NCBI RefSeq assembly: GCF_022045235.1
Contig: NW_027266319.1
Coordinates: 15,686,001-15,750,000 of the forward strand
Length of the DNA: 64,000 nucleotides
Direction: 5' to 3'
From: Haliotis cracherodii
Lineage: Eukaryota
Below the pieces are notes generated by a model. That model did not search any database and was not told where the DNA came from. It saw nothing but the letters and a program-made list of their open reading frames with translations. This document shows positions 14,548-64,000 of this stretch, piece by piece. Position 1 is the stretch's first letter. Each line of letters begins with the position of its first letter. A program made the translations under genes and the position numbers.

Positions 14548-14848
14548 ATATAAACTCTGTCTCTTCAGAGGCCGTGTAACAAACTTAATAACCCGTTCTT
14601 AAATCACAACTAATGATATCTATAACCTCAACATTTTGTCGATAGGTACAATTAACAAAGTCAGTTTTGATTGATTTTACCGATGTTTCAACACTAATGG
14701 CTTCATGGCGTATAACCAAACTATTATGATGAATATCGACTCACTTTGATATTGATGTGGTGGTTTATATTCAGCGATTCAATATCAACAAAACTTATTG
14801 CTGACATTCATTGTTATCTTGGAAGAGACAGAGACAGAGACAGGTCAC

Positions 14849-33900: not shown

Positions 33901-36900
33901 AACCCAACTCACTCACTCACTCACTCACTGTGGAGTGTTCACCTGGTACAGGACATTGGTACAAACAAGTAACAGACTAGTCACTTATTTCCCCGGTTGT
34001 CATCTTTGTAATAACAGAATAATACACCGATACGTTTTATGGATTCCGCTGTAATTTAACCCTCGTTTGTGTTACAGAGATACTGTAAACTTATACATAA
34101 TATTATATATTATTGCATCGTGAAGCTGATTGATCTATCATGTTGCCTCGTGTCATGTTACTTTGCCTTGTAGCCTCCACTGGCACTGGCTCAGGATCGT
34201 GCGGAGACACTCAAGTCAAGGCATGGGCTTGTGAGCTGCTTCAACTCCACAACTCCGGCAAGATTGAGCTGTGGAAGGTTCACCCCTCTGGTGTCCATGA
34301 CAACGCTTTCTCCTACAACAACATCCGGGACACCTGCAACGGCCATGCTGCAAGCAGATCCCAGTGAGTTACATTTAATTGCAATGTAATGCGATAGCTA
34401 ACCAATGTACAGATAAGTAGTCTGTCCTCTCAGTCCGGATGTCTGTACCGTTATAACAGTCTGTACCCTCAGTCCGGATGTCTGTACCGTTATAACAATC
34501 TGTCCTCTCAGTCCGGATTTCTGTACCGTTATAACAGTCTGTCCTCTCAGTCCGGATTTCTGTACCGTTATAACAGTCTGTCCTCTCAGTCCGGATGTCT
34601 GTACCGTTATAACAGTCTGTACTCTCAGTCCAGATGTCTGTACCGTTATAACAGTCTGTCCTCTCAATCCGGATGTCTGTACCGGTATAACAGTCTGTCC
34701 ACTCATTCCGCATGTCTGTACCGTTATAACAGTCTGTACTCTCAGTCCAGATGTCTGTACCGTTATAACAGTCTGTACTCTCAGTCCAGATGTCTATACC
34801 GTTATAACAGTCTGTACTCTCATTCCAGATGTTTGTAACGTTATAACTGTCTGTCCACTCATTCCGGATGTTTGTACCGTTATAACAGTCTGTCCTCTCA
34901 GTCCGGATGTCTGTACCGTTATAACAGTCTGTACTCTCAGTCCGGATGTCTGTACCGTTATAACAATCTGTCCTCTCAGTCCGGATGCCTGTACCGTTAT
35001 AACAGTCTGTCCTCTCAGTCCGGATGTCTGTACCGTTATAACAGTCTGTACTCTCAGTCCGGATGTCTGTACCGTTATAACAATCTGTCCTCTCAGTCCG
35101 GATGCCTGTACCGTTATAACAGTCTGTCCTCTCAGTCCGGATGTATGTAACGTTATAACAATCTGTACTCTCAGTCCGGATGTCTGTACCGTTATAACAA
35201 TCTGTCCTCTCAGTCCGGATTTCTGTACCGTTATAACAGTCTGTACTCTCAGTCCGGATGTCTGTACCGTTATAACAGTCTGTCCTCTCAGTGCGGATCT
35301 CTGTACTGTTATAACAGTCTGTCCTCTCAGTACAGATGTCTGTATCGGTCTAACGTTAACAGTCTATACTCTCACTACGGATGTGTCTTTATCGTATGAA
35401 CACTCTTCCAGTTACACCTGCAATGGCTGCTTAGCTCCCGGTGGCACCATTTGCCTCAACCACGACCTCGTCCACTACCTCATCACGCTGGCAAGGAAGG
35501 GATACATGCATGTAAGAATTCATATTCTTCCTTACACAGGAGGGCACGGGTGGCCCAGTCGCCTAAGGCGCCGCGATTCGCTGTGCAGAGTTGTGTCCCT
35601 TGGGCACGCCAGAAACCTATGATTGTGGGTTCGAATCCCGGTTCGCCCCGATTATGTTTCTAGGTTTGTCAGCACGATACCCGTGTTCGTGGATTTCACC
35701 GAAGTGGTAGACGTCTGAGACCTGCATCACTTCAGGCTTTCCTCCCACATTAAGCTGGCACGCCGTGACATAACTGGAATTATGTTAAAAGCGGCGTTAA
35801 ACCCAACTCACTCACTCACTGCTTACACAATATGCTTACATCTTTCGCAAGCAGTTCAATAGCATGTGCTGCCCCATCACCAGACTGTATACTACTACTA
35901 GTGTCTAGCGAAATACTGTTGTAGATATGCTGGCAATGAAAAACAGACATAGAATATTCATAATTTGATAAAAACAATTGATGACTAAGTGAGGTGAATA
36001 TGGTATTACACCGCTTTTAGACATATTCCAACAATAGCAACAGATTTTGGATTGACAAGATAAAAAAATGTAATACATATACGATAAGATAAACTATCAC
36101 ATGGTTGGCATATGTTACTTTTATCAATACGGCGTTCACGCTAAAGCAGAAGGATGAAGAGAGCGGGTGGAAATAAAGAAAATTAAAGAAACAAGACTTC
36201 TAAAACAAATTGTATCAGATCTTTGGACGTACTGGGACCAGAAGTGGCAATTCCTTCTTAAACGCTGCTGAATCTTAATCCCGTGTCAGCACATTACCGC
36301 TGATCGTGGGTTTCCGAAAGATGCGCACGTCTCACTCAGCTGACATGCCGAGAAATTATTTTTCAGAGGAGTGTAAAATCAAACTCTCTCCCCAACTTGT
36401 TCCTTCTTTAAAAACTTCAATTCTTTAGAAAAATATCAATATGCAGAAATGTATGTGATGGACAAACGTGTACTGAAATATGTCCGTTGTTTTCTTACGT
36501 CCTCTCTATAAAAAATAGGACAAAAACATTTTCTCAAAAAGTTATTTTCACAGCCAATAGTATATAAATGCAATATTGAAATATGGTGATATACATGATG
36601 ATAAAGTTAATGAATATGATGATAAACTTGATGATATACACGATGATAAACAAGACGATAAACTCAATAAATAACTTGATGATAAACATGATGATAAATT
36701 GTGCGTCTACGACATACACTTTGAAAACCGTAAAAGGTTACCGTATCAGAATATTTATGTAGGTATTCCGGTTATTCAACATTCTATTTTCAGGTCAACG
36801 AGATAGCTGGTGCCTGTCACACATGTAACTCCCGCCACTACAGAGGTCAAGCTGTTGATCTTCACAACGGGTCAAGGTCGAAGGAATTCCTGGATCTTTG

Positions 36901-36964
36901 CTTTTCTATGAACGGATGGGGGCAAAATGAAGGGGACCATATCCATTGCCAATTTGGATACTGA
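30961..36964 (+). CDS. Secreted SH3b-domain + LAS/M15-type zinc peptidase (249 aa), candidate peptidoglycan hydrolase. Exons 30961-31078, 32261-32379, 33415-33466, 34174-34363, 35412-35511, 36794-36964
   Basis: Six GT-AG exons with phases 1,0,1,2,0 total 750 nt with no internal stop. Signal peptide MLLLVCVLVATVTA. SH3b pattern VNARDHPG...LNTGE...YKWFEI...LWVAGVYL. G/S/T linker. Catalytic-type motifs SRHYRGQAVD (H208, D215) and DHIH (H242, H244). AATAAA at 37238. Confidence 0.88.
31880..32115. repeat. ~28-30 bp degenerate minisatellite (aaggtcaaatgtgtt core)
   Basis: About 8 copies, intronic. Confidence 0.85.
33641..33927 (+). mobile_element. Full-length tRNA-derived SINE family A with a 13-bp target-site duplication
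   Basis: A-box gtggccaagtcg, B-box ggttcgaatcc, (actc)n tail; TSD ctgtggagtgttc on both sides. Confidence 0.9.
34418..35385. repeat. 39-bp intronic minisatellite, ~25 copies
   Basis: Unit ataacagtctgtcctctcagtccggatgtctgtaccgtt. Confidence 0.95.
35541..35820 (+). mobile_element. SINE family A
   Basis: Near-identical to the 33641 copy; flanked by cttacaca repeats. Confidence 0.88.
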
Positions 36965-37302
36965 TTCTATCATAACTGTATGTTTTGATATATGAACTGT
37001 ACTATAATGTATTGGTAGCACCCAGGCATCTTCAAGTTTGTTATTTCTTTGTTTTTATTTAATAACTTGTTGAACATCATGCTTGTACATGCGTATCATT
37101 ACGCGCCGTGTCCGAGGCTAACATTTTGGAGAAAGAAGTTCGAACGGTTCAAATGGAAAATGGTTTCTCGTCACTGATGATACACCTTGACTCGTGACAA
37201 AATGCGGCGTGACGTTAAATTATAATTCAATTACTCAAATAAAATGTCGGCAAATCCATTTTAGACAAAGGTGGACATGACTTGGTTTGCACCCATGGGA
37301 TT

Positions 37303-40300
37303 AGAATATACACTTGTACAAGAGAACGTACAGCTCCACCCTAGTGCATGAGAATATACACTTCCACACATGTACAAGAGAACATATAGTTCCACCATTG
37401 TACAGGAGAACATATAGTTCCACCATTGTACAGGAGAACATATAGTTCCACCATTGTACAGGAGAACATATAGTTCCACCATTGTACAGGAGAACATATA
37501 GTTCCACCATTGTACAGGAGAACATATAGTTCCACCAATGTACATGAGAACATATAGTTCCACCATTGTATATGAGAACATATAGTTCCACCATTGTACA
37601 TGAGAACATATAGTTCCACCATTGTACATGAGAACATATAGTTCCACCAATGTCCATGAGAACACACACGTCCACCAATGTACATGAGAACATATAGTTC
37701 CACCATTGTACATGAGAACATATAGTTCCACCAATGTACAAGAGAACATATAGTTCCACCATTGTACATGAGAACATATAGTTCCACCATTGTACAAGAG
37801 AACATATAGTTCCACCATTGTACAGGAGAACATATAGTTCCACCATTGTACATGAGAACATATAGTTCCACCAATGTACATGAGAACATATAGTTCCACC
37901 ATTGTACATGAGAACATATAGTTCCACCATTGTACAGGAGAACATACAGTTCCACCATTGTACAGGAGAACATATAGTTCCACCATTGTACATGAGAACA
38001 TACAGTTCCACAATTATATATGAGAACATATAGTTCCACCATTGTACATGAGAACATATAGTTCCACCATTGTACATGAGAACATATAGTTCCACCAATG
38101 TACATGAGAACACACACGTCCACCAATGTACATGAGAACATATAGTTCCACCATTGTACATGAGAACATACAGTTCCACCATTGTACATGAGAACACACA
38201 CGTCCACCATTGTACATGAGAACATATAGTTCCACCATTGTACAGGAGAACATACACGTCCACCAATGTACATGAGAACATATAGATCCACCATTGTACA
38301 AAAGAACATATAGTTCCACCATTGTACATGAGAACATATAGTTCCACCATTGTACAAGAGAACATATAGTTCCACCATTGTACATGAGAACATATAGTTC
38401 CACCAATGAACATGAGAACATATAGTTCCACCATTGTACAGGAGAACATATAGTTCCACCATTGTACATGAGAACATATAGTTCCACCATTGTACATGAG
38501 AACATATAGTTCCACCATTGTACAAGAGAACATATAGTTACACCAATGTACAGGAGAACATATAGTTTCACCATTGTACAGGAGAACATATAGTTCCACC
38601 ATTGTACATGAGAACATATAGTTCCACCATTGTACAGGAGAATACATAGCTCCACCCTTGTACATGAGAACATATAGTTCCACCATTGTACAGCAGAACA
38701 TATAGTTCCACCATTGTACAGCAGAACATATAGTTCCACCATTGTACAGGAGAACATATAGTTCCACCATTGTACAGGAGAACATATAGTTCCACCATTG
38801 TACAGGAGAACATATAGTTCCACCATTGTACAGGAGAACATATAGTTCCACCAGTGTACAGGAGAACATATAGTTCCACCATTGTACAGGAGAACATATA
38901 GTTCCACCAATGTACATGAGAACATATAGTTCCACCATTGTATATGAGAACATATAGTTCCACCATTGTACATGAGAACATATAGTTCCACCATTGTACA
39001 TGAGAACATATAGTTCCACCATTGTACAGGAGAACATATAGTTCCACCATTGTACATGAGAACATATAGTTCCACCATTGTACATGAGAACATATAGTTC
39101 CACCAATGTACATGAGAACATATAGTTCCACCATTGTACATGAGAACATATAGTTCCACCATTGTACAAGAGAACATATAGTTCCACCATTGTACAGGAG
39201 AACATATAGTTCCACCATTGTACATGAGAACATATAGTTCCACCAATGTACATGAGAACATATAGTTCCACCATTGTACATGAGAACATATAGTTCCACC
39301 ATTGTACAGGAGAACATACAGTTCCACCATTGTACAGGAGAACATATAGTTCCACCATTGTACATGAGAACATACAGTTCCACCATTATATATGAGAACA
39401 TATAGTTCCACCATTGTACATGAGAACATATAGTTCCACCATTGTACATGAGAACATATAGTTCCACCATTGTACATGAGAACACACACGTCCACCAATG
39501 TACATGAGAACATATAGTTCCACCATTGTACATGAGAACATACAGTTCCACCATTGTACATGAGAACACACACGTCCACCATTGTACATGAGAACATATA
39601 GTTCCACCATTGTACATGAGAACATACACGTCCACCAATGTACATGAGAACATATAGATCCACCATTGTACAAAAGAACATATAGTTCCACCATTGTACA
39701 TGAGAACATATAGTTCCACCATTGTACAAGAGAACATATAGTTCCACCATTGTACATGAGAACATATAGTTCCACCAATGAACATGAGAACATATAGTTC
39801 CACCATTGTACAGGAGAACATATAGTTCCACCATTGTACATGAGAACATATAGTTCCACCATTGTACATGAGAACATATAGTTCCACCATTGTACAAGAG
39901 AACATATAGTTACACCAATGTACAGGAGAACATATAGTTTCACCATTGTACAGGAGAACATATAGTTCCACCATTGTACATGAGAACATATAGTTCCACC
40001 ATTGTACAGGAAAATACATAGCTCCACCCTTGTACATGAGAACATATAGTTCCACCATTGTACAGCAGAACATATAGTTCCACCATTGTACAGCAGAACA
40101 TATAGTTCCACCATTGTACAGGAGAACATATAGCTCCACCATTGTACAGGAGAACATATAGTTCCACCATTGTACATGAGAACATATAGTTCCACCATTG
40201 TACAGGAGAATACATAGCTCCACCCTTGTACATGAGAACATATAGTTCCACCATTGTACAAGAGAACATATAGTTCCACCTTTATACATGAGAACATATA

Positions 40301-41249
40301 GTTCCACCAATGTACAGGAGAACATATAGTTCCACCATTGTACAGGAGAACATATAGTTCCACCATTGTACATGAGAACATATAGTTCCACCATTGTACA
40401 TGAGAATACATATCTCCACCCTTGTACATGAGAACATATAGTTCCACCTTTATACATGAGAACATATAGTTCCACCATTGTACAAGAGAACATATAGTTC
40501 CACCATTGTACAGCAGAACATATAGTTCCACCATTGTACATGAGAACATATAGTTCCACCATTGTACAGGAGAACATATAGTTCCACCATTGTACAGCAG
40601 AACATATAGTTCCACCATTGTACAAGAGAACACACACGTCCACCATTGTACATGAAAACATATAGTTCCACCATTGTACAGGAGAACATATAGTTCCACC
40701 ATTGTACATGAGAACATATAGTTCCACCATTGTACATGAGAACATATAGTTCCACCATTATAAATGAGAACATATAGTTCCACCATTGTACAGGAGAACA
40801 TATAGTTCCACCATTGTACAGGAGAACATATAGTTCCACCATTGTACATGAGAACATATAGTTCCACCATTGTACAAGAGAACATATAGTTCCACCATTG
40901 TACATGAGAACATATAGTTCCACCAATGTACATGAGAACATATAGTTCCACCATTGTACATGAGAACATATAGTTCCACCATTGTACAGGAGAACATATA
41001 GTTCCACCATTGTACATGAGAATACATATATCCACCCTTGTACATGAGAACATATAGTTCCACCTTTATACATGAGAACATATAGTTCCACCATTGTACA
41101 AGAGAACATATAGTTCCACCATTGTACAGCAGAACATATAGTTCCACCATTGTACAGGAGAACATATAGTTCCACCATTGTACAGGAGAACATATAGTTC
41201 CACCATTGTACAGGAGAATACATAGCTCCACCCTTGTACATGAGAACAT
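37303..41249. repeat. 28-bp satellite, subtype 1 (~140 copies)
   Basis: Unit gagaacatatagttccaccattgtacat. Confidence 0.97.
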
Positions 41250-41881
41250 CTAGGACCTCACTTGTACATGAGAATAAATAGGTCCTCGCCTAGACCACGG
41301 AGGCAGTCTGCATGTAAATGAGAACAGAGAGGTCCTCGCTTGTTCACGAGAACATAGAGGTCCCTGCATGTAAATTAGAACACATAGGTCCTTGGATGTA
41401 AATGAGAACATAGAGGTCCTCACTGGAACATGTGAACACATAGGTCCTCGCTTGTACATGAGAACATAGAGGTCCTCGCTTGTACATGAGAACATAGAGG
41501 TTCTCGCTTGTACATGAGAACATAGAGGTCATCGCTGGTACATGAGAACATAGAGGTTCTCACTGGTACATGAGAACATAGAGGCCCTCGCTTATACATG
41601 AGAACATAGAGGTCCTCGCTGGTACATGAGAACATAGTGGTCCTTGCACGTAAATGAGAACATAGGGGTCCTTGCATGTAAATGAGAACATAGAGGTTCT
41701 CGCTGGTACATGCGAACACATAGGTCCTCGCTGGTACATGAGAACATAGAGGTCCTCGCTTGTACATAAGAACACATAGGTCCTCGCTTGTACATGTGAA
41801 CATATATGTCCTTGCATGTAAATGTGAGGTGAGGTGAAATGGGGTTTAAAGTCGCGTCCAAGATTATTGTACTTATATAGC

Positions 41882-41936
<55 letters not shown>

Positions 41937-43905
41937 CATCTTTTAACGTATTTTGGTATGACGCAGCCGGGAATCGAACCCCGGACCTTCCGCTCTCCGG
42001 GCGGAGGCTCTACCACGAGACCACGGAGGCGGTCTGCGGTAAATGAGAACATTCAGGGCCTTGCATGTAAATAAGAACACATAGGTCCTCGCTTGTACAT
42101 GAGAACATAGAGGACCTGGCATGTAACTGAGAACACATAGGTCCTCGCTGGTACATGCGAATATAGAGGACCTGGCATGTAACTGAGAACACATAGGTCC
42201 TCGCTTGTACATGAGAATATAGAGGACCTGGCATGTAACTGAGAACACATAGGTCCTCGCTGGTACATGAGAATATAGAGGACCTGGCATGTAACTGAGA
42301 ACACATAGGTCCTCGCTGGTACATGAGAATATAGAGGACCTGGCATGTAACCGAGAACACATAGGTCCTCGCTGGTACATGCGAATATAGAGGACCTGGC
42401 ATGTAACTGAGAACACATAGGTCCTCGCTGTTACATGAGAACATAGAGGTCCTCGCTTGTGCATAAGAACACATAGGTCCTCGCTTGTACATGAGAACAT
42501 AGAGGTCCTCGCATGTAAATGAGAACACATAGGTCCTCGCTGGTACATGAGAATATAGAGGACCTGGCATGTAACTGAGAACACATAGGTCCTCGCTGGT
42601 ACATGAGAATATAGAGGACCTGGCATGTAACTGAGAACACATAGGTCCTCGCTGGTACATGCGAATATAGAGGACCTGGCATGTAACTGAGAACACATAG
42701 GTCCTCGCTTGTACATGAGAATATAGAGGACCTGGCATGTAACTGAGAACACATAGGTCCTCGCTGGTACATGAGAATATAGAGGACCTGGCATGTAACT
42801 GAGAACACATAGGTCCTCGCTGGTACATGCGAATATAGAGGACCTGGCATGTAACTGAGAACACATAGGTCCTCGCTGGTACATGAGAATATAGAGGACC
42901 TGGCATGTAACTGAGAACACATAGGTCCTCGCTGTTACATGAGAACATAGAGGTCCTCGCTTGTGCATAAGAACACATAGGTCCTCGCTTGTACATGTGA
43001 ACACATAGGTCCTCGCTGGTACATGAGAAGACATAGGTCCTCGCTTGTATATGAGAACATAGGGGTCCTTGCTTGTGCATAAGGACACATAGATCTTCGG
43101 TTGTAAATGAGAACAAATATGTCCTCGCTGGTACATGAGAACACAGAGGTCCTTGCATGTAAATGAGAACACATAGGTCCTCGATGGAACACGAGAACAT
43201 AGAGGTCCTCGCTCTGTGCATAAGAACACATAGATCTTCGGTTGTAAATGAGAACACATAGGTCCTCGCTGGAAAACGAGAACATAGGGGTCCTCGCTCT
43301 GTGCATAAGAACACATAGGTCTGCGGTTGTAAATGAGAACACATAGGTCCTCGCTGGTACATGAGAACATAGAGATCCTCGCTGGTACATAAGAACACAT
43401 AGGTCCTCGCTGGTACATGCGAACACATAGGTCCTCGCTTGTATATGAGAACATATAGGTCCTTGCTGGAACACGAGAACATAGAGGTCCTTGCATGTAA
43501 ATGAGAACACATAGGTCCTCGCTGGTACATGCGAACACATAGGTCCTCGTTTGTATATGAGAACATATAGGTCCTTGCTGGAACACGAGAACATAGAGGT
43601 CCTTGCATGTAAATGAAAACACATAGGTCCTCGCTGGAACACGAGAACATAGAGGTCCTAGCTTGTGCATAAGAACACATAGGTCTTCGGTTGTAAATGA
43701 GAACACATATGTCCTCGCTGGAACACGAGAACAAAGAGGTCCTCGCTTGTGCATAAGAACACATAGGTCCTCGCTTGTAAATGAGAAGACATATGTCCTC
43801 GCTGGTACATGAGAACATAGAGGTCCTCGCTGGTACATGAGAACGTAGAGGTCCTCGCTGGAACGTGAGAACACATAGGTCCGTCAACATTTGTACATCA
43901 GAACA
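41250..43905. repeat. 28-bp satellite, subtype 2, partly organised as 56-bp dimers; interrupted by a family D SINE with (GT)n at 41827-42034
   Basis: Units gagaacacataggtcctcgctggtacat and gagaatatagaggacctggcatgtaact. Confidence 0.95.
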
Positions 43906-45545: not shown

Positions 45546-48500
45546 ATGTCCGCCATGTTGCTTTTGCTGCGTCTTTGCGTTCTACAGGCATCCATACTGG
45601 TAATAGCTGCAATGGAGGGCGTTGCTCTCCAACAAGGGGCGTGTGTGTGTGCCACGGAGGGTCTCGTGGACGCGTATTCAAAACGTGAGCATTATTAACT
45701 GCTAATGTGAATCCATGTCCCATGACAGATTATATAACTACAGTTGTTGACGGGACATGAGAGACGTGTGACGAGGCAGGTGGCTCGTGCAACGTTCTCC
45801 ATACTGGCCTGGGAATTGTATCTCGTTCCGATAGTACTCTTACCGGGATTTTTTTCCAAACTATTACCTCTATTACAGAAGTCCAATGATATAAGATATG
45901 AATATGATTATCAAAATCTTTTTACCATGAAATTTCAACTCACATTGAATTTTCAAGGCGTCAGGTGTATTTTTTCATGGTAATACTGAACTTTCGTAAG
46001 TTATGAAATCTGACCTACACAAATTCCAAATATGTGAAGGCGCTTGTAACTTCATTTCATCAATATACCAACAAATAACATTCGGGCTATTTTATTTCCA
46101 TTCTTGTATCATCAATTCCCTGGATCCATTCGCCACAACAATGCCGTTAAGGACTTGACGTCACACATCTTAATCTATGTTACCACATATTTAGCACGGA
46201 ATTTCTCTCGCTCTTGTGAGTAATGTGACTGGAGAATTTGTTTACATGTAAGTGTTCAATGTCATTTGTATCGAGCTCAAAGCGAAGCTAATGCAGCGTA
46301 TGGATCCAGGGTAATTGTCAATACAGAATGTACATATTACACACTGGATAATCGAGGGTGGTGTGGAAACAACTGGCGACAGTCCATTTTACGGCTTGGA
46401 ACACCTTCCTGGATCCACTTTCAACAAGGAAACTATGAGTGAGTGAGTTGGGTTTAAGGCCGCTTTTAACAGTATTACAGTTATATCGCGGCTTGTCAGC
46501 TTAATGTGGGAGGAAAGCCCGAAGTGATGCAGGTCTCAGACGTTTACCACTTCGGTGAAACCCACGAGCACGGGGATGGGGTTGACAAACCTAGAAACAT
46601 AATTGGGGCGAACCGGGATTCGAACCCACAATCATAGGTTTCTGGCGTGCCCAAGGGACGCAACTCTGCACAGCGAATCGCGGCGCCTTAGACGACTGGG
46701 GCACCCGTGCCCCTAAGGAAACTATAATACGTCCATGTTGAAATATACAGACCATGGCCAAGTTCTTGAAGGGAGCAGGTCCCTGTCAGCATGGATTGCA
46801 TGAATGTGGGGTGCAGTGAATGAGTGAATGAATGTTGTTATGTGACGCAGTCTGCCAGGGTATTTGTTAAAAAAACCCAGCACAATCGACTCTGATCCTG
46901 GAAAAAGCAGGTGACACGGTTTCACCATCCGCCCCAATTCTGTGAGTGAGTGAGTGAGTGAATTTGGTTTTAAAACACTTTTGAAGAGCTTAACAGTTAT
47001 TTCACGGCGTATCAGCTTGGCGGGAGAGAAAGGCCCGAAACAATAACACCTGTTCCACTTTGGTGCAACCAACGAGCACAGATACGTTGCTGACAAACCA
47101 AGAAACAATCAGGGCAGATCTAGGATTCTAATCCACGATCAAGACCGTCTCCGTGGTCTAGTGGTAGAGCGTCCGCCCGGAGACCGAAAGGTCCGGGGTT
47201 CGATCCCCGGCCGCGTCATACCAAAAGACGTTAAAAGATGGTACTTGTTGCTACCCTGTCTGGCGCTCGGTATTAAGGGGCTAAAACACGAACTGGTCGG
47301 CTCGGAGTCAGTATACGGTATTCATGTTCAACTGAGGCATGGTATCTCAGTGAGCTAGCACTATAAATCGGCATCATTCCGGACTAGTACAAGCAGCCAC
47401 ACACACACACACATACACGTGCATGCACGTCGCTATATCAGTGCAATAATCTTGGACGCGACGTTAAACCCAATTTCACCTCACATTATCCACGATCAGA
47501 GGTGTCTGGCACGCCTAAGGGATGTAAGTCTACCCAGTCTGTCGGATCGCCTTGCTCGACGACTGTGCCACCCGTGGCCCGTTACTCAGTTCAACGTGTG
47601 AAGGAAGCTACGTAGAATCACGCGTCACTGTGAGGAGCTTCAGCAACCTAACGACAAACGTAGAACACGAAATAATGCCGTACTGCGTCAATACATGGGA
47701 CAACGCGTAATACAGTGAATAACGCAATACAACACGGACCAATGTAGGACTAAGTGAAATTAGCTGAAAACATCGGTCGATGAAGATACATCATTGACTA
47801 CCGTATTGCTCATGTGAAGTGTGTTTCTTCCAGCTGGTTTCGACAGCGAGAGCATCACGTACATCAGTTTTGGAGAATGTCTACGGTCAAACGGCCAAAG
47901 CATGGAGATGAACGGAGACTCGTGGTACGGCGTGGCAGTCAAGAATGAGGTCAGTCCCATGTTCAATGGAATTAGAATCATTCAAGTTTCAAAATATTGA
48001 ATGCTATATAATTGTTCATTTATAGGAGACTTCTCCGAACTGTGGAGGGTTTCCTCCCACATATACACGGTCCGTCAAATGCAGTGTAACATTTAGGGCC
48101 ATTGACGTCGGCAGTGCCCGTGAAGATCCGGGGTAGAATAGGTCTTCAGCAACCCATGCTTGCCGTAAAAGGTGACTGCTTGTCGTAAGAGGCGACGAAC
48201 GGGATCGGGTGGTAAGGCTCGCTGACTTGGTTGATGCATGTAATCTTTTCCCAATTGTATGGATCGATGTTCATGATGTCAATCAATGGATTGTCTGGTC
48301 CAGATACGATTATTTACAGACCGCCGTCATATCGCCGGAATGTTGCTGAGTGCGGCGTCAAACAAACAAAACAAGCCTCAAGAGAACAATAAAAGCGCCC
48401 GTAAAATACCCGTTTAATGACATGCGTGGATATGTTTTTACGCCTTTTGGCTGTATTCCACCAGAAATGGGCGTAAACCATTGTACACATGGAGAATCGA

Positions 48501-48700
48501 ATCCGGATCTACGACTTCACCAACGAACGCTTTATGCTACCCCTCCCCTACCTCATTGTTATCATTCAGTGTTGTTGCACGACCGGTGGTCAGTGTTAGG
48601 ATTGATGTGTTCTGGATTGTTTCAGGAGCTGACATCCCCCCGGTTGCTATGGGTTGCAGGCAGGTTCCTGAAGCAGGGCATCCCCTCACAATGTGCTTAG
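45546..48700 (+). CDS. Secreted SH3b-only protein (109 aa), paralog of the N-terminal half of the 30961 gene. Exons 45546-45684, 47834-47949, 48626-48700
   Basis: Same intron positions and phases (1,0) as the 30961 gene. MSAMLLLLRLCVLQASILVIAA...GACVC...PG...GEC...SWYGV...LWVAGRFL...SQCA*. All four Cys of the domain are conserved. Confidence 0.8.
46437..46713 (-). mobile_element. SINE family A with target-site duplication
   Basis: TSD aaggaaactat on both flanks. Confidence 0.88.
47143..47483 (+). mobile_element. tRNA-derived SINE family D, near full length, nested in an older family-A-like copy (~46945-47580)
   Basis: A/B boxes gtggtctagtgg and ggttcgatccc; atccacgatca is repeated on both sides. 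Confidence 0.75.
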
Positions 48701-50295
48701 AGGTGAGTGAAACAAGGCATCCCCTCACAATGTGCTTAGAGGTGAGTGAAACAAGGCATCCCCTCACGGTGTGCTTAGAGGTGAGTGAAAGAAGGCATAC
48801 CCTCAAAGTGTGCTTAGAGGTGAGTGAAACAAGACATCACCTCACAGTGTGCTTAGAGGTGAGTGAGTCAAGGCATCCCCTCACATTGTGCTTAGAGGTG
48901 AGTGATAGAAGGCATTCCCTCACGATGTGCTTAGAGGTGAGTGAATCAAGGCATCCTCTCACGGTGTGCTTAGAGGTGAGTGAAACAAGACATCCCCTCA
49001 CAATGTGCTTAGAGGTGAGTGAAACAAGGCATCCCCTCACGATGTGCTTAGAGGTGAGTGAAACAAGGCATCCCCTCACAATGTGCTTAGAGGTGAGTGA
49101 AACAAGGCATCCCCTCACAATGTGCTTAGAGGTGAGTGAAACAAGGCATCCTCCCACGGTGTGCTTAGAGGTGAGTGAAACAAGGCATCCTCTCACGGTG
49201 TGCTTAGAGGTGAGTGAAACAAGACATCGCCTAACAATGTGCTTAGAGGTAAGTGAAACAAGGCATCCCCTCACGATGTGCTTAGAGGTGAGTGAAACAA
49301 GGCATCCCCTCACAATGTGCTTAGAGGTGAGTGAAACAATGCATCCTCACAATGTGCTTAGAGGTGAGTGAAACAAGACATCCCCTCACAATGTGCTTAG
49401 AGGTAAGTGAAACAAGGCATCCTCTCACAGTGTGCATAGAGGTGAGTAAATCAAGGCATCCACCCACAATGTGCTTAGAGGTGAGTGATAGAAGGCATCC
49501 ACCCACAATGTGCTTAGAGGTGAGTGATAGAAGGCATCCTCTCACAGTGTAGAAGGCATCCACTTACAATGAGCTTAGCGGTGAGTGAATCAAGGCATCC
49601 CCTCACAATGTGCTTAGAGGTGAGTGAAACAATGCATCCTCACGGTGTGCTTAGAGGTGAGTGAAACAAGACATCCCCTCACAATGTGCTTAGAGGTAAG
49701 TGAAACAAGGCATCCTCTCACAGTGTGCATAGAGGTGAGTGAATCAAGGCATCCACCCACAATGTGCTTAGAGGTGAGTGATAGAAGGCATCCACCCACA
49801 ATGTGCTTAGAGGTGAGTGATAGAAGGCATCCTCTCACAGTGTAGAAGGCATCCACTTACAATGAGCTTAGCGGTGAGTGAATCAAGGCATCCACCCACA
49901 ATGTGCTTAGAGGTGAGTGAAACAAGACATCCCCTCACAATGTGCTTAGAGGTAAGTGAAACAAGGCATCCTCTCACAGTGTGCATAGAGCTGAGTGAAT
50001 CAAGGCATCCACCCACAATGTGCTTAGAGGTGAGTGATAGAAGGCATCCATCCACAATGTGCTTAGAGGTGAGTGATAGAAGGCATCCTCTCACAGTGTA
50101 GAAGGCATCCCCTTACAATGAGCTTAGCGGTGAGTGAATCAAGGCATCCACCCACAATGTGCTTAGAGGTGAGTGATAGAGGGTATCCTCTCACAGTGTG
50201 CTTAGAGGTACGTGAAAGAAGGCACCCCCTCACAATGTGCTTAGAGGTGAGTGAAACAAGGCATCCTCTCACGGTGTGCTTAGAGGTGAGTGATT
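48677..50295. repeat. 39-bp minisatellite, ~40 copies, beginning inside the last coding exon of the SH3b-only gene
   Basis: Unit ggcatcccctcacaatgtgcttagaggtgagtgaaacaa. Confidence 0.95.
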
Positions 50296-52879
50296 GTGGG
50301 TAAGTGATTAAGTGAGGTAGTAGGGATTTACACCACTCTTTATCAATAGCCATTTCACGGCCCGATGGTGATATTGGTGCAACACACATTGATATGATGT
50401 GACGAGTAAATATGCTCGAACCATTTTCACCAGAAGCAGCTCCCTGTAGTTTAATTCCCTCCTTCTGTTTCAGGCAGCTCCAGTGTTCTGGGCGGAGCCT
50501 AGGTTCAGAGGGGAATGAGCTCACCATCAGTGGCACTTGGTACACAATATGCGCATATATTCATTTTATTGGTTTCATTAAATATCATCATGCAGCGACG
50601 AGTGTTCTGTTGACGGACACAGACAACGATCTGCGTGATGAGATGACATTTAGGTTTCATTAGAAAGATGTATGTGAACCTCGTATACAATGAGCCTTTT
50701 GATGAGTGAGTGGGTGTCTTCTTTGTCAATATACCAGCCATATTACGGCAGGGGACATCAAGAATTCGTCCCACTCAGTTTGTCTCTGTGGCGACTTTAG
50801 AAACATTGCATGGTCTTTACCATGGACACTCTCCGTGGTCTAGTGGATAGAACGTCCGCGCGGAAAGTGAGTGAGTTCGGGCCCCGGTCGCGTCATACCA
50901 AAAGACGTTATAATATGGTATTTGTTGTTTCCCTGCCTCGCGCTCGGCAATAAGGGATTAAAGCAAGGACTGGTGAGCTTAATGTCAGTATACTGACGGA
51001 GTACTCATGTTAACCTGCGGCATGGTATCTAGGTGGGCTGGCACTTTCTAGCAAACCAGAATAAGTCCGTACTAGTAAAAACACAACTCACTCACTCACT
51101 CTAGACTTCTACAAAATGTACAACTCGCAGATGAAGGAGAGTGCCATCCTCACCTCTCCAGGCATCCGGCATACCACCTAATGTGTCTCGGCATCCAATT
51201 TAAGAGCTTTTGAGTCATATCAGTGTACGCAGCTGGTACAAGAAAATTAGACGGGAATTTCCACTTAGAGTGCATGACCATGCGAGTTCATAAGCTGAGG
51301 CTTGAATATTGGATTGATTTTCACACTTTGCCAGAAAAAAGAGACGTAAAAGTAGATTTTCAACATTCAAATATTACCATCCACGTCCGGGATAAACATT
51401 TCATGGCATCCCCCCTCTACTCGTAGGAAGAAAATCTGCGCATTTGCCATCTTCGAATGATGGAATGCTTGATTAGGATTTTCTTTTTATAGCAAATAGT
51501 TATGAGAAAACTTCATCATAAATAATTGGGGTCTATGTTGATCACCAATAATCCTTAATAATTGGTGACAATTATTCATTTAATTGCGTGAGCTGTTCAT
51601 TTTATAGCAAATGTACTAATCCGTTGTCACAACAGAGTACTTAAATCTGGGGATTTAAGGCCATGTGGGAATATAATCAACAAATTCATGTTGCATATGT
51701 GCCATTGTTTATTTCACAATATATTTACAATTTTGTACAAAGTAAATATGTACCTCTTCATCAAAGCAAATATATAATGTATTTTCAAATCAAAACAAAT
51801 ATATTATTACGGAGACCAATCAACAGACAAGTTTGTATCACCTGATACAGAAGAAACTGTATTGTTTCAACAGTGTTTCAATTTCATTATGCATTTAATA
51901 TTCACATACAGACAATTATATTACATCACCGATAAGATGCGTGTGCGTATAGTCGATCTAATTTGTGTTGAAAAGATCCAGATGGGGCCCAACGTGGGTT
52001 TACTGTTTACAATTGCCTTCACTGGTATACCTAGTCGTAAGCAAGGATTAAATCGTACCTAAATATTTTCCCGGGGGAAGTTTTACTCTAGAGTATAATA
52101 CAGGATAGGATTAAACACACTGGTGTGGGTTCAAATTCACTAGGGAGAATCATCCTGACACTAGAGAATTTCATCCCCGGGATAAAAAATAGGGTAGGAT
52201 AATATTCACTCTTACATTTTCTGTGGCGGTGTTACTACAAGAGGAGCCCCGTTAATCCACACAATGACGTTCACACTGAAACGTTCAGCCTCGATTATCC
52301 AGTGTAGTGAATCTCGATTATGCATACCTTGGACTCTTTCCCAACCACTGATTCGTTTCGGAAGTGACATCACCAGAGTTGGTTACATTATCACAAGCAA
52401 AATTTCTCTCGATCGTGAGCTTAAAATAAACAGCCAATCAAAATGCCTGATCGATAGTGCGCCATAGACCTACATTCAAAATCTGCGGACACATCCAAGC
52501 AAGACCTTGATGTTCGCCATAAATAAAATTTTAGCTTGGAAAGATGTGTTTCTGAGACCGAAGGGATGGATGTCTTTTCGCGTCAGACGTTCCGCTTGTT
52601 TCTGTGCAGAAATGGAAAACTCGAGACGATTACAGGAGACTTAGCCTCTATTTTTAGATATAGATATAGATACACTGGATAATCGTGGATAGAAATCACC
52701 ATGGTTTAAACAGGTCCACAATGACAAATCAAGGATGGGGAGTTATGCCCATTTTGTATTTACACAACTATCTCCAAAAGTGTGTGCCCGTAATGAGGAG
52801 AGTCTGGATTAACGGGGTTTCCGTGGCTGTTGAGACGTGTACTAATGCCGTAGACCACCACCTTACTTTGAGACAGACA

Positions 52880-53044
52880 NNNNNNNNNNNNNNNNNNNNN
52901 NNNNNNNNNNNNNNNNNNNNNNNNNNNNNNNNNNNNNNNNNNNNNNNNNNNNNNNNNNNNNNNNNNNNNNNNNNNNNNNNNNNNNNNNNNNNNNNNNNNN
53001 NNNNNNNNNNNNNNNNNNNNNNNNNNNNNNNNNNNNNNNNNNNN
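52880..53044. other. Assembly gap (N run)
   Basis: Direct observation. Confidence 1.
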
Positions 53045-53344
53045 AACGCTCGGGTCACAGAGGCCCGGCATACTGGTGCCTGTACAACACATGTCAACTT
53101 CTTCCCCGGCTGCAACTACTACATTGACTTAAATGGCTGGGCACTGAAAGACGTGAGGATAGATTCCTATAGGGCGACGTTTCTCGGGGGACGTTCGCTC
53201 TCTTGTTTCAGAATTCATCCGCCATTTGTAATTGTGAATGATTTGGCAAAATAATCTTTTTCAGAAATTATAAAGAGACATCGCGCAAGGTAACCATGAC
53301 TATAACAATTTGTTAACAATACTTTGTAGCAATATCACGTGTCG

Positions 53345-53378
<34 letters not shown>

Positions 53379-53578
53379 GATCGGTAAAATCATATTTTAG
53401 CATTCAAAATATTTCAACATTATAAAGTCGGTATGTCACTTCTATATATTGACTCAAAGCTAATTATCTTTTAACAAACGGACAAAAAAATAAAATAATT
53501 GAAAAACAGGGACAATTTCAATGCTCGATCATTTTTACAACGGATAAAAGCGCCCCCCGTGTGTATGCCCTCTATTCC

Positions 53579-56500
53579 TTACAGCGCCTTATACGCTGTT
53601 GGCATCCTCCGTGTTGGTATGTAGTACACGGAGTCAAAGCTCTCCCTATCGATGTTGGTGCGAAGAGTTCTTGTGCTGCTGTTGTGCAGTGAAAGACTTC
53701 CCCCGGAGCCGTTCGACGACGTCGAGTTGCTGTTCGTCGGAGACACCTGTTTCGGAGCCCGACGGTTGTCTTGCTTGTTGCAACACAACATGTACCATTG
53801 GTCGCGAACCTGCTTCCTTCTGGCTACCAACATCACAAAGATAAAGAAACCCTGCAAGGAGCTGAGGAAGGTGAAGACGTATTGAAACACGATCCGGGCA
53901 TCCTCGATCTGCAGGAAGCCGAATATCCACGTCAACCCTGGAATTAAAGGCAAAAACACGTACACTCGCATGCAAAAATAACTGTTTTATTATCTAACAT
54001 ACTGGGATTTCTTAAAACTTAAAACTCCCTTCTTGTCAAAGATTCAAAGACGTTTAATTTGTCGGAAGATGTAACTCAACGTTTTTCTTATGTCGATTTT
54101 TTTTTTCAAATAAATATATTAACAGTCTTCTGCCCAGCGATCTGTGGTATTTTTACACAAGTTGAAATGGCTGCTAATTCAAATTCCCAACAAGAGTGAG
54201 TGAGTGAGTATGGTTTTACGCCGCTTTTAGCAATATTCCAGCAATATCACGGCCCAACAAGAGATTGAAAAGGAGAGGCAAATTTGAGGTGTGAGTTTGT
54301 TTTTCTCTCAAATACGCTTTAAGCTACACAGGTTTACCTTGACGAACGGTTTCAAAAACCGTAAAAAACAGTCAAAGCCTCGGTAAAGCTTTCAAAAAGT
54401 GTTATGGAAGACATGTGGAGGACATTTCAAAATTTGGCACATAAGTGACAGAAATGATGTCCGATGCAGTTCCCTATTTTGTATCACATGTTCCCATGTT
54501 TTTTTCAGGTGAACAATTGACTTGCCTTTGCATGTGTTTGTGACGGGTGCCACCAGTGGGGCAGGATACGCTCACCTTTTCGCGAGCACCTGGATTAGTC
54601 ACTATGTAGTAGACTAGTAATTATTGTTTAAATGGACCATAATTCAAGCCGAGGGGCCATATTGTCCATATCATCATGGACATCTTATCATACCCGGCCT
54701 TGCTTTATGTCCATGCCGACAATCCGGTTCCAAACAAACCCGTTCCAGTTTAACCCAAACACGAGGAAGCGTGTTGAACTTAATTACACCTAAACATGTG
54801 TTTTTTTCATAGTATTTGTTTTAATGTTCTGTGAAGTTGTAAATACAATTAATGTGAAGCAAACCTACCCAGAAGCATAAAAATGGTGACAGCGGCCTTC
54901 AAGTGCATCCTAGCTCGTCGCTGTTTCGACTGGGTGCTCCGGAGACCGTCGGGTCGTCGTACCAGGCTGGCGAGGATGATGATGAACATGATGATGTTGA
55001 TGACAACGATGACGCCGACGGGTACAGCAAATGCGTAATAGAAGGCCTCCATCCCCATCCAGCAGCTAGGAGGGAAAGTTTAATTGATCACTCTAGAAAA
55101 TGTGTTGCATTGTACAGTTGGTTGGTTGGTTGGTTTGTTGTTTAACGCCACACTCAGCAATATTCCTGCTATATGACGGCGGTCTGTAAAATAATCGAGT
55201 CTGGATCATGAGCATCGATCCACGCAATTAGAATCGCCTTTTACGCCAAGCATAGTCGACTTTTACGGCAGGCATGGGTTGCTGAAGACCTATTCTATCC
55301 CGGAATCTTCACGGTCCGCATTGTACAGTGTTACGTAAGTCGCAAAGACGTCAGGGCGGTGATTTAGCCTCGTGGTTAAAGCGTTCGCTCGTCACAACGA
55401 AGACCCGGGTTCGATTCCCAACGTAGGCATAATGTGTAAAGCCCATCTCTGGTGTCCCCCACCGCGATATTGCTGGAGTATTGCTAAAGGCGGCATAAAA
55501 CCATACTCACTCACGTATAGACATCATGAAATGTTCAGTAAAAATATAATGCTAATACTTTGTTAAGAACAAACAATAAATTTTACAAGAAGTATATAAA
55601 AGAACGTGTTCAATGACAATAGTTCATGAAATTGCTTTTAAAGAAGGCCAAAAAGTATATTTTGTTCATCTTGTTTTGTGATGGAGTGTCTGACATAATT
55701 CAGCAGTAAAACTGAACACACGGTATGTTTTTTGTGGAGTACCCCCCTTCCACTTGATGTCAAAATCAATGTAACCAATGTCATGTGTGAACCTGAGTGT
55801 GTGTCACTTTGAAAGAAGGGGTAGCCATAAGCTGCTAGGTAAGATGAAGACGATAAATTTGTTTGTTTGTTGTTTAACTTCTCACTCTGCAATATTCCAG
55901 CTATATGACGGCGGTCTGTCAAAACATCAAGTCTGGACCAGACAATCGAGGGACTGATATCACGTGCATCGCACAACTTAATTGGGATACGATGACATGC
56001 ATCAACCAAGTCAGGGAGCCTGGCCACCCTGTTAGTCGCCTCTTACGAGCATAGTCGCCTCTTACGACAAGCATGGGTTGCTGAAGACAAATTCTAACGG
56101 GATCTTCACTCACGGGTCTCTACCATAGTAATGAGTCCAAAGTTTTGAGTGGGTTGCCTATCTGAATTGAGGAAACACCAACGACATCCTTTAAACAAAG
56201 TTAGACGCTGTATATGCTCAAACATTATACGTTGCAACTCTTTCAATTGTTAACACTTCATAGCAGAGTGCTGCCAAATGCCCCAAGCCTTGAAAACATC
56301 TGGCGGAACTTACTACGACTTCCGCCCTCGGTACATGTTGTAGTCAATCGAGAGCACGGAGACCACAGGGATGAGAGGCAAGCCTGTGGAGAGGATATAG
56401 AGGTAGAGCACAGGTACTGAAGACAATCGACATAGAGTCAAGTGTAACAATGTTACATAAACATCATTTTTATATAACGAAAATTGAAAGATGTTAAATA

Positions 56501-59500
56501 AAAAGAAAGGTTTGTAACAATATTAGATAAACTTAATTCTTATATACCAAAAATTGAAAGATGCTACATAAAATATTTTTTGTAACAACGTTAGATAAAC
56601 ATCATTTTTATATACCGAAAAATTGAAAGAAGGTTAAATAAAAAGAAAGGTTTCTAACAACGTTCGATAAACATCATTTATATATACCGAAAATTGAAAG
56701 ATGTTAAATAAATGAAAAGATTTGCAAAAACGTCAGATAAACATCATTCTTATATCCCGAAAATTGAAAGATGTTAAATAAAAAGAGAGGTTTGTAGTAA
56801 CGTCAGATAAACATCATTTTCTGTATACTGAAACTTGAAAGATGTTAAACAAAAGAAAGGTTGGTCTAAGTCTTACCCCATGCAGGAATGGCCGTTTTGA
56901 GTGCATAACTTGACACATACGTGCCAAGGATCTTAACGAAAGTCATGTACTGCAATATGGCCTCAATCAGCATCCAGAGGAACGACACCAGGATGAAGTA
57001 GTGCAGCAACACGGCCACGGACAGACAGAAGTACTCGTTGTTGGTCTGTTTGATGCCCACCAGGAACACCACCTTGGAACATAGCAGGGCCACGGCCATG
57101 TGGAACAGAGTGAGTTGGGCGCGCCCCTGACGCAGCTTCCTGGAAGCAGTGGCAACATCTTTACAAGATGATCACATTTTTTGTTATCTATTTGAATAAT
57201 TTACATTATTCAAATTAAGTGTCCAGATTAATTGCTTATTCTGTATGCCTGGTAGGTGGCATGTAGGTATCAACATATGACCGCATGTAGATATCAATTT
57301 ATGACGGCATGTAGAAATCAAAATATGACAGCATGCAGGTATCAATATATGACTGCATGTAGGTATCAATATATGACTGCATGTAGATATCAATATATGA
57401 CGACATGCAGGTATCAATATATGATGGTGTGGAGGTATCAAAATATGACGGCGTGGAGATTTACTGATAATTGTTTATGCCTATGTAGATACAGTTATCA
57501 ATAAACGACGGAATGTAGGTATTAATATATGGCTGAATGTAGGTATCAATATATGACGGTGTTGATGTATCAAAATATGACGGTGTGGAGGTATTATGAC
57601 GGTGTATAGCACTCAATCACGAATAATAGCCTAGATGTTCACTATTTTACTGAAAACAACGATCATGGGCATGGTGCTAAAAGAATGGCATTCGAAACAA
57701 TCGTCATTAGATCCTTGTAAGGGTAAGGGGTGTAACTCTGCATAGCACTTTGCGTCACCCCAAGCTACAGCGTCATCCGCCCCCTGAAGATCAAGATAAC
57801 GTACAGAGGCAGAGAGGGACAGTGGTACTGACTTGAAGAAGACGAATGTGATGATGGTGAGGGCGAGGCCGAAGATGGAGAGGCTGAGGCCGACCAGGGA
57901 GATGATGCTGAGCGTCAGTTCATGTTCAGGCTCCACTGGCTTGCTGTGTCCGTAGAAGTCCTGAGGAGTGGATGGTAGAGTCAGTGAGTGAGTGAGTTGG
58001 TTCCATACCATTTTGAAGACTAGTTCAGTATGATTATGTGTAAGCCTTACGACAGGGAAGGTCGAAGTGACGCAGTTTATTTATCACATTGGCGAAACCC
58101 ACGAGAAGCTGACGGACCAAGGATCATAACCTGTGATTCGAACCCACGACATACAGATTTTAGCATAGATAAGGATGGAGTATGTGTTATTATAAGGGCA
58201 GCATAGACCACTGATTCACCAGTACACATATGTCGGACAGAGATGTAAAATGGGTCTACATTAAATGTTCATCTTGCATTGCACAGAGGACATGAAGTCA
58301 ATAATTACATTGCATTACATGTAAGGCTAAAAACAAAATATTTTTGGTTCTCAGGCACCACCGCATCATCACAAAGTTTCGTTTTTATTTCCATTTTGAA
58401 AAAAATATATATCCTTAAATGTTACGCGTCTCGAACGCACGACCCCACAGTGAAACGCTACAATACTTAAAAACAATGCGATCCAATATTGCATGCAGTT
58501 ACTTCCCTTTTCATGCGCACTGCTTTACTGCGCTTCTTATGCGTTATGGCGGTAATTGGAGAGTGCTTGTTTTGCCGTTTGCAAATTTGGCCAAAGAAAA
58601 CATGAAATTTGCGATAGAAAATCACCAGACATGATGATTTACATAGTCAGTGGTATCTGTGTACTGTATGCGGGACAATGTTTCATACGCAGAGGTTAAG
58701 TTTTACATATTTATTTGTCTCGTAAAATAAGCGGGAAATGATTAATTTGCGTAGTTCAGCGCGGATTTGCTGACATGGTATTTCCGGTGTTACGTGTTCA
58801 CAGTAATGTGTTTGTGTTGGGAAAAAACCCAAAAGAAACCCTTCAACCCTGTGTATAAGACGACAACCACCCCCACCCCCGAAAACCTCATGATTATAGT
58901 TATGAAAAAATCGCCTTATACACAGCGATATACGGAATTGGATTCTTACAATTTTGTACACAAACGAAATAACATAAAAAAAGCTGCCCAGCCACACGAT
59001 ATTTTCCTAAGCTATTGCCTCAGAACCAATTCTCTTTTTTCAGCCTTAACAAACGGGCATCTTCTTGAGGCAAGGAAGTTATTTGACTATAAATGTCCTG
59101 TTTCCACCCTTGCCGAACTTGGTTGGAATTCCGGACTTACATTTTGGCTGGACTCACGAGTCTATTCATAAGCAAAGGAAAAAGGCGGACAATCTCGTAA
59201 ACAACATGGATTTCAATGTACAGATTTGGGTTAACTGCAGGATTTGCAAAGCATGTGAACCATCAACTGGGTGGATATTTTGCAAATCATTTTTAATCAA
59301 GGTGTTCAAGTGATTTGATGCACATCGCGGGGTAAGACCCGTTTTATTACAATACAATACAATTCAATAATCTTGATTATCGATCAGATGGTCGTAGCTT
59401 TTTTTGTTTGAAGCCATTGCAAGTGATATGAGAGATTGAATCTGATTGGTCGGTAGGAGGGACATAGAAGGGACATAACTCGTAATAGCCACTGGTGGCG

Positions 59501-63895: not shown

Positions 63896-64000
63896 CTATA
63901 AATGTAGAATGACCATCATGTATGTGTTGTCTCATCAGCTGGGAGATCATGGGTTTGACAATTTAAAACATTATTAAACATTATTAAGAATTTGAGAATT

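Follow-up and report, generated by a model that had tools for sequence, protein, structure and literature searches.

The window analysed here is a 64,000-nucleotide stretch of the Haliotis cracherodii genome (contig NW_027266319.1, positions 15,686,001 to 15,750,000). Its subject is a three-exon gene at 45546-48702 on the + strand, called the stand-alone gene in this text, which follows an enzyme-like six-exon gene at 30961-36964, called the neighbour gene. Our best reading is that the stand-alone gene represents an old gastropod family of stand-alone SH3b proteins with a rebuilt pocket, and that its product is a detached SH3b binding module, not a peptidoglycan recognition protein (PGRP). The mature chain is predicted to be a single SH3b-fold domain, free of any enzyme. 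It is likely secreted, as judged by its hydrophobic N-terminus and four conserved Cys. Sequence comparison suggests that the gene likely split from a lineage of SH3b plus M15-like enzymes early in gastropod history or before. The pocket that receives the D-Ala end of the stem peptide in bacterial SH3b domains appears charge-reversed in this family: the Arg site that holds a carboxylate appears to have become an aromatic-acidic site, which is kept in four distant lineages. The full proposal, a secreted and enzyme-free domain that split early from the enzyme lineage, reversed its pocket charge and binds a positively charged microbial group rather than the D-Ala end, is tentative, and we give it somewhat less than an even chance.

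Gene structure and splicing

The features of the stand-alone gene and of the DNA that follows it are these.

45546-45684, + strand: coding exon 1, with a hydrophobic N-terminus (likely signal peptide), Cys33-x-Cys35, VDAY replacing the V[NH]xR motif, and a phase-1 donor
47834-47949, + strand: coding exon 2, with the SH3b barrel core, the family-specific Tyr56 and Asp75, Cys62, Trp77, and a phase-0 donor
48626-48702, + strand: exon 3, with LWVAG, Cys108, the stop TAG at 48698-48700, and then the donor AG/GTGAGT two bases past the stop
48669-50293, + strand: 39-bp tandem array, which starts within exon 3 and repeats the exon's last codons, stop and donor
50474-50539, + strand: candidate untranslated exon with a pyrimidine-rich acceptor and a GT donor, proposed from the letters only

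The open frame encodes 109 aa and ends at the TAG at 48698-48700. The protein is identical to an H. cracherodii RefSeq model labelled uncharacterized protein. An earlier note on this DNA had described four conserved Cys, an LWVAG motif and an intact frame, and all of these are there (Cys33, Cys35, Cys62 and Cys108). Disulfides are predicted among the four Cys. The first six 11-residue Kyte-Doolittle windows have means of 1.8-2.6. The letters at the exon end are also as the note gave them: the third donor of the neighbour gene reads CAGTGTG/GT, and the stand-alone gene reads CAATGTG-CT-TAG. The stop followed by a donor AG/GT[GA]A occurs 35 times in the 39-bp array.

Evidence of splicing comes from contigs of four sequencing runs, which represent four studies and four organisms and whose RNA status is presumed by the search tool. 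The run search matched 23 runs; 21 contained part of exon 1, none was on record as RNA, and four of the 21 were examined. The joint of intron 1 (45684 to 47834, GT..AG) is spliced in contigs of all four. The joint of exon 2 to exon 3 is present in at least two of the four, among the joints listed. In two of the runs, contigs across intron 2 match the window as far as 48703, after which they continue elsewhere for ~55-60 letters, according to our own arithmetic on depth and record lengths. This fits use of the first donor copy, two bases past the stop, likely as the start of an intron of the 3' untranslated region. Among the differences listed between contigs and window, at least 10 fall in exons (4 synonymous and 6 non-synonymous), a count that is not an estimate of the ratio of non-synonymous to synonymous substitution rates.

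These contigs bear on the idea that we are looking at a pseudogene, at an artefact of the assembly, or at no more than the 5' portion of a longer gene that is completed by readthrough of the stop or within a stretch of N. The stop does fall inside a unit of the tandem array, and reading on past the stop, the frame stays open through the candidate exon at 50474-50539. The 165 N that the note had placed at 52880 are present (52880-53044); they could be a mask or an assembly gap, which are indistinguishable here, and the sequence beneath them is unseen. A convergent 7tm_2 receptor gene ends, at its stop, ~540 bases short of them. Nevertheless, that reading frame is closed again by the next candidate junction. 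A weak likeness of 50474-50550 to exon 2 (E 3.7) is at chance level. The note had allowed for a gene without expression and for a stop private to this assembly. Instead, spliced contigs come from four studies, and the stop has the same position in four of four Haliotis species (H. cracherodii, H. rufescens, H. rubra and H. asinina), where the protein ends in Cys-[Ala/Ser]-stop. Over the deeper Haliotis pairs, identity in the domain is 82-88% with all four Cys kept, as compared to 84-95% for the neighbour's SH3b module and 91-97% for the neighbour's C-terminal domain. The models of three distant gastropods stop 2-4 residues past the last Cys. Catalytic exons downstream of the stand-alone gene, which the note had not recognised, were also absent from a profile search: over 5764 stop-free stretches, a profile of the neighbour's C-terminal domain matched only the neighbour's own three exons, and on the + strand from 48700 to 53600 no stretch did better than E 110. 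We hold a pseudogene, an assembly artefact or the beginning of a longer gene to be very improbable.

Predicted fold

The structure model of the stand-alone protein has a predicted local distance difference test score of 85.2 and a predicted template-modelling score of 0.72. A fold search over 48,161 chains placed seven chains at Z >= 8, and all seven are of the SH3b type (Z 8.2-9.4, root-mean-square deviation 1.5-2.2, 60-67 aligned). Six of them come from cell-wall hydrolases or peptidoglycan-peptide peptidases. The best match is the phiSM101 endolysin 4krt (Z 9.4, root-mean-square deviation 1.8, 66 aligned). Foldseek returned no row at E <= 0.001, yet the same kinds of protein head its list.

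The cut-off of the Pfam family SH3_3 (PF08239) is 27 bits; the stand-alone protein gave no match, the H. asinina ortholog reached 14.1 bits, and five other scans of stand-alone proteins gave none. The neighbour also stays under this cut-off (14.8 bits). No Pfam family matches the 109-aa protein at E <= 1, and so the Amidase_2/PGRP domain that marks a PGRP was not found in it. The Atlas lists SH3_3 leads for the stand-alone protein and for the Aplysia relative. Searches of PDB sequences with the stand-alone protein or the family profile gave nothing meaningful.

Family and age

Eleven matches at E <= 0.001 came out of a search over 1.84 billion representatives. Of the matches of this search, P0006 and P0007 were judged to be chance, and P0008 was set aside. 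Stand-alone relatives of 106-111 aa are present as gene models in Gigantopelta aegis, Aplysia californica and Lymnaea stagnalis, and the Gigantopelta model diverges after Trp94. A search with the family profile, confined to proteins of near length, gave six matches among 1767 candidates, and its sole addition was H. asinina. Longer proteins were searched with the exon-2 frame as the sole query; both candidates were stand-alone, with no fused form among them. The Gigantopelta protein matches only the stand-alone gene in the H. cracherodii genome (E 3.8e-6). The orthology of the Aplysia and Lymnaea proteins is likely. The Aplysia protein also has a better-scoring match at L031, on a different contig (E 0.0067); this match was rejected, since the profile finds no SH3b exons in the 30 kb around it. 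One copy of the stand-alone type was found in the H. cracherodii genome, as opposed to Arg-bearing modules at several loci, and no further SH3b copy was found in the window or in the 10 kb on either side.

A tree was built from 29 modules, comprising seven stand-alone proteins (four Haliotis, Gigantopelta, Aplysia and Lymnaea) and 22 other modules. The seven stand-alone rows fall on one side of a branch with 99/97 support. The same branch has 92/93 support when the four pocket columns are removed, and 94/93 when the bacterial rows are also left out. The stem branch of the family measures 0.96 changes per column. A single clade of the Haliotis stand-alone proteins and the Haliotis enzyme was rejected in three builds by the approximately unbiased test (p-AU 0.0002, 0.00035 and 0.0005). 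The stand-alone rows all together as the sister of the Haliotis enzyme are compatible with the tree test (p 0.465), and a grouping of the stand-alone proteins with all the enzymes has 87/80 support.

The note had described the gene as a paralog of the neighbour. It is indeed related to the neighbour's N-terminal SH3b domain: the local alignment of the two proteins scores 135, and 1000 shuffles give 28.7 +/- 4.7 with a maximum of 54. It is not, however, a recent local copy, as relatives exist in Gigantopelta, Aplysia and Lymnaea and the Haliotis-only clade is rejected (p-AU 0.0002). The identical intron positions that the note had pointed out are confirmed. Introns 1 and 2 have phases 1 and 0 in both genes and stand at the same aligned places. 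Intron 2, together with the CxC...C layout, is also common to five of five other SH3b modules examined in the genome, and these lack intron 1. As a result, only intron 1 ties the stand-alone gene specifically to the neighbour's lineage. Since the lineage is an old gastropod one, the letters CAATGTG-CT-TAG are not readable as the record of a truncation event.

Other SH3-like exons were seen in the genome. Five SH3b exons with the pattern CxC...HxRSG (loci L003, L004, L007, L008 and L029; contigs C2, C9 and C13, three of them on C13) keep the Arg and have no intron 1. Contig C5 carries ~19 identical-scoring SH3-like exons with Pfam SH3_3 matches at ~25.87-27.02 Mb, with ~64-kb spacing, which suggests a segmental array on a large scale or else a repeat in the assembly. 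One exon of this array that was read resembles a eukaryotic SH3. The CxC...HxRSG pattern is absent in the four read among this array and the loci L005, L006, L009 and L010, and the array and these four loci were left out of the tree. A literature search found no description of the stand-alone gene, of six accessions or locus tags of its relatives, or of stand-alone animal SH3b proteins, with most subscription journals lying outside the search.

The putative D-Ala pocket

Residues R427, H458 and W460 of lysostaphin are equivalent to R172, W203 and W205 of Lys1358, and they are reported to coordinate the terminal D-Ala4 of the stem peptide (bioRxiv 10.64898/2026.05.06.723369). In Lys1358, R172 lies within V169-N170-x-R172, and W203 is two places ahead of W205. 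The R172A substitution reduces activity, and R172A/W203A abolishes it (same preprint). In ALE-1, R296A makes binding 3-fold weaker (PMC6038053). A fungal SH3-like domain holds triglycine via His8 and Arg10 (PMC10394673).

Positions 44 and 75 of the stand-alone protein would equal R427 and H458 of lysostaphin. This equivalence is drawn from the motif, the spacing and one alignment of an annelid module to PlySb. Both bacterial domains have their Arg and Trp 33 positions apart, and Tyr44 and Trp77 are also 33 apart. VNVR and GYSW of the annelid module align with LNVR and GYVW of PlySb. Position 44 is Arg in 21 of the 22 other modules, as opposed to none of the seven stand-alone proteins, which have Tyr, Phe or Asn. 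Two places before the Trp (position 75), all seven stand-alone proteins have Asp or Glu, which none of the 22 others has (two are gaps; the change is from an aromatic or aliphatic residue). Tyr56 is invariant in the seven and absent in the 22. Thus, the two features of SH3b domains that bind the stem peptide, an [N/H/I]-x-Arg motif and an aromatic, His or aliphatic residue at Trp-2, were not found in the stand-alone family. Tyr44, Tyr56 and Asp75 may form one aromatic-acidic site.

Proposed function and alternative explanations

If the site is formed as proposed, the protein would no longer anchor on the D-Ala end of the stem peptide. The ligand would be a microbial surface group bearing an amine or ammonium, for example a free Lys or diaminopimelic acid amine, D-alanylated teichoic acid, phosphocholine or amine-modified lipopolysaccharide (LPS). 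In mucus or gut, the soluble protein may coat or mark microbes.

Several points weigh against this proposal. The ligand class is deduced solely from residue chemistry. Aplysia and Lymnaea have an Arg two places after position 44, and two of four Haliotis species have Lys there, which might partly compensate for the loss; counting one or two places past 44, five of the seven members have a basic residue. Loss of the Arg costs ALE-1 only a 3-fold reduction (PMC6038053), and SH3b domains are described as having more than one site. The domain is acidic (isoelectric point, pI, 4.3-4.8) only in Haliotis and Gigantopelta, and neutral in Aplysia (7.0) and Lymnaea (7.8). One domain implies one site, and agglutination would need oligomers. 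Aplysia and Lymnaea are long branches whose placement alone is weakly supported, and the support of the stand-alone branch without the pocket columns is under star level. Finally, the seven stand-alone proteins amount to just four independent lineages.

The note had proposed a binding-only peptidoglycan recognition protein, parallel to the non-catalytic PGRPs, with a possible part as sensor, opsonin or decoy partner next to the enzyme. Part of this stands, as the gene encodes a spliced, conserved and enzyme-free SH3b-fold protein. Retained binding of peptidoglycan by a soluble protein of this kind, at a different surface or with altered specificity, would agree with the best fold matches among cell-wall hydrolase domains and with the position of the gene beside an enzyme-like gene in Haliotis. 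Mollusc and annelid SH3b modules are fused to PGRP amidases and lysozymes (PMC11810698, PMC9570181, PMC11083476), and a fungal SH3-like domain can bind Micrococcus cells on its own (PMC10394673). The basic residue that persists near position 44 in five of seven members is consistent with it. However, both D-Ala4 pocket positions are replaced in seven of seven, with an acidic residue where the carboxylate would sit, and so the parallel with non-catalytic PGRPs is weak. The neighbour's own module retains both Arg37 and Tyr69, and single SH3b domains are described to bind wall fragments just at the millimolar level. We consider persistent peptidoglycan binding rather unlikely.

The new invariant residues (Tyr56, Asp/Glu75) and the long stem branch fit a change of function, as does the single stand-alone copy found in the genome as against several Arg-bearing loci. 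These observations could also indicate a host-directed secreted protein of the mucus or shell matrix, or a signal that binds a host protein, through the rebuilt surface. For a host ligand there is no positive indication; no paper came from the accession search, and the characterised animal SH3b modules in the literature found are all tied to cell-wall enzymes. A host role is unlikely in our estimate, a little more so than retained peptidoglycan binding.

The linkage of the two genes raises another alternative, in which the stand-alone protein is a partner of the neighbour, either as an inhibitor, a stabiliser or a trans-acting targeting subunit. The genes are adjacent here. Their locus numbers in H. 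rufescens follow one another, and in both H. rubra and H. asinina a single contig carries the pair. In Haliotis, there is a charge contrast between the stand-alone domain (pI 4.3-4.8) and the neighbour's SH3b module (pI 7.9-9.1), and stand-alone SH3 genes by phage lysis genes were proposed to encode auxiliary subunits (PMC13164509). Tandem origin already predicts adjacency, however, with no need for a physical link, and the charge contrast is missing in Aplysia and Lymnaea. A prediction of the complex of the mature stand-alone protein with the neighbour scored 0.00 in two runs in which alignments were unused, and it points neither way. We hold such a partnership to be quite improbable.

Under the preferred reading, in which an amine-bearing microbial group is the ligand, a more specific role can be envisaged. 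Bacteria add D-alanylated teichoic acid, phosphoethanolamine- or aminoarabinose-modified LPS, and phosphocholine to resist cationic antimicrobial peptides and lysozyme. The gastropod stand-alone SH3b protein might be a free, charge-reversed receptor that reads such amine-bearing coats as a mark of evasion and complements the Arg-bearing hydrolase encoded next door. This extension is a long shot.

Whichever ligand applies, a bare module kept across distant gastropods with both pocket positions switched together is a natural experiment on the ligands of animal SH3b domains. In the literature found, animal SH3b modules are only accessories of lysozymes or PGRP amidases, and their binding is for the most part taken for granted. 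A new microbial ligand, if true, would mean that molluscs have a further class of recognition protein, which would matter for the health of abalone. A host ligand, if true, would mean that a bacterial-type wall-binding fold was taken over for a host function.

The neighbour gene and other features of the window

The neighbour gene has the following exons.

30961-31078, 32261-32379, 33415-33466, 34174-34363, 35412-35511 and 36794-36964, + strand: six coding exons of the neighbour gene, 249 aa

The encoded protein has an SH3b module with VNAR (Arg37) and Tyr69 intact and a C-terminal domain of the M15/Hedgehog-N fold. In this domain, HxxGxAVD is present in 13 of 13 relatives and H[IV]H in 12 of 13; we take H-x6-D and HxH to be the M15 Zn motifs. 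In the fold search, Sonic hedgehog N scored Z 7.3 and the Zn DD-peptidase 1lbu Z 6.7. Neither reaches the level that the tool treats as clear, and a Pfam M15 match is absent. Fold and motifs suggest that the neighbour would be an enzyme. Cyanovirin-N matches of its profile were rejected, being unsupported by its fold search. The neighbour belongs to a family of mollusc proteins that combine SH3b with the Hedgehog-N/M15 fold (abalone, Ruditapes and Pinctada), with a related form in the annelid Owenia. The C-terminal domain of this family has no Pfam name, and the literature search gave no paper on it.

Other features of the window and its arrays were also observed.

34400-35400, 37300-43900 and 48669-50293: long tandem arrays in or beside both genes, the last of which grew from the exon end and splice donor
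24212-24661 and 14215-14598, - strand: small tandem pair of exons, almost identical to each other and lying upstream of the neighbour gene; they begin with a signal-like stretch and carry a PAN/apple domain that scores above the PAN_1 cut-off
53582-64000, - strand: exons of a 7tm_2 receptor (secretin family), probably an adhesion G protein-coupled receptor, convergent with the stand-alone gene
1043-2488, - strand: long single frame with a signal-peptide-like start, Lys-Arg-separated units and four near-identical His-rich repeats of 41 residues, amphipathic-looking

The frame at 1043-2488 looks like a precursor polyprotein for antimicrobial or signalling peptides, and its Pfam matches are unconvincing.

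Comparison with known systems

The stand-alone protein is closest in predicted structure to the bacterial SH3b wall-binding domains (Pfam SH3_3, PF08239), such as those of 4krt, lysostaphin (6rk4) and Lys1358. It shares with them the predicted barrel (Z 9.4 to 4krt and 7.6 to 6rk4), the conserved Trp77 and Trp94, and the spacing of 33 from the Arg position to the Trp. It differs from them in being encoded by an animal gene with introns, in its four Cys, in the lack of a catalytic domain, in scoring below the Pfam cut-off, and in the replaced residues of the D-Ala pocket. The non-catalytic PGRPs, for example Drosophila PGRP-SA, are likewise enzyme-free secreted relatives of a cell-wall hydrolase. 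They keep the peptidoglycan groove of the amidase fold and lose the Zn ligands. In contrast, the stand-alone protein has no catalytic domain altogether, and the binding residues of the domain that remains are changed. The stand-alone SH3 genes in the lysis modules of Drexlerviridae resemble it in having a lone SH3 domain beside cell-wall lysis genes (PMC13164509). These are phage genes of the DUF7244 family (PMC13164509), however, and the analogy is one of layout only.

Animal PGRPs and lysozymes have been described that carry SH3b modules (PMC11810698, PMC9570181, PMC11083476, PMC3308963). The lophotrochozoan modules on PGRP amidases and i-type lysozymes (MgPGRP5, Ct-PGRP-S1 and Ealb-iLys) share with the stand-alone protein the character of a secreted animal SH3b module (PMC11810698, PMC9570181, PMC11083476), and disulfides are described in the SH3b module of Ealb-iLys. 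Unlike the stand-alone protein, these are N-terminal accessories of enzymes, and 21 of the 22 other modules examined keep [NH]xR. The stand-alone protein consists of nothing but the module, and the surface that it conserves is another one. The fungal SH3-like domain (PMC10394673) is also a eukaryotic, disulfide-linked domain of the SH3b type (Z 8.2-8.6), but it is always described as fused to hydrolases. As judged by the motif and the aligned range, its His8-x-Arg10 peptide site corresponds to Asp42-x-Tyr44 in the stand-alone protein.

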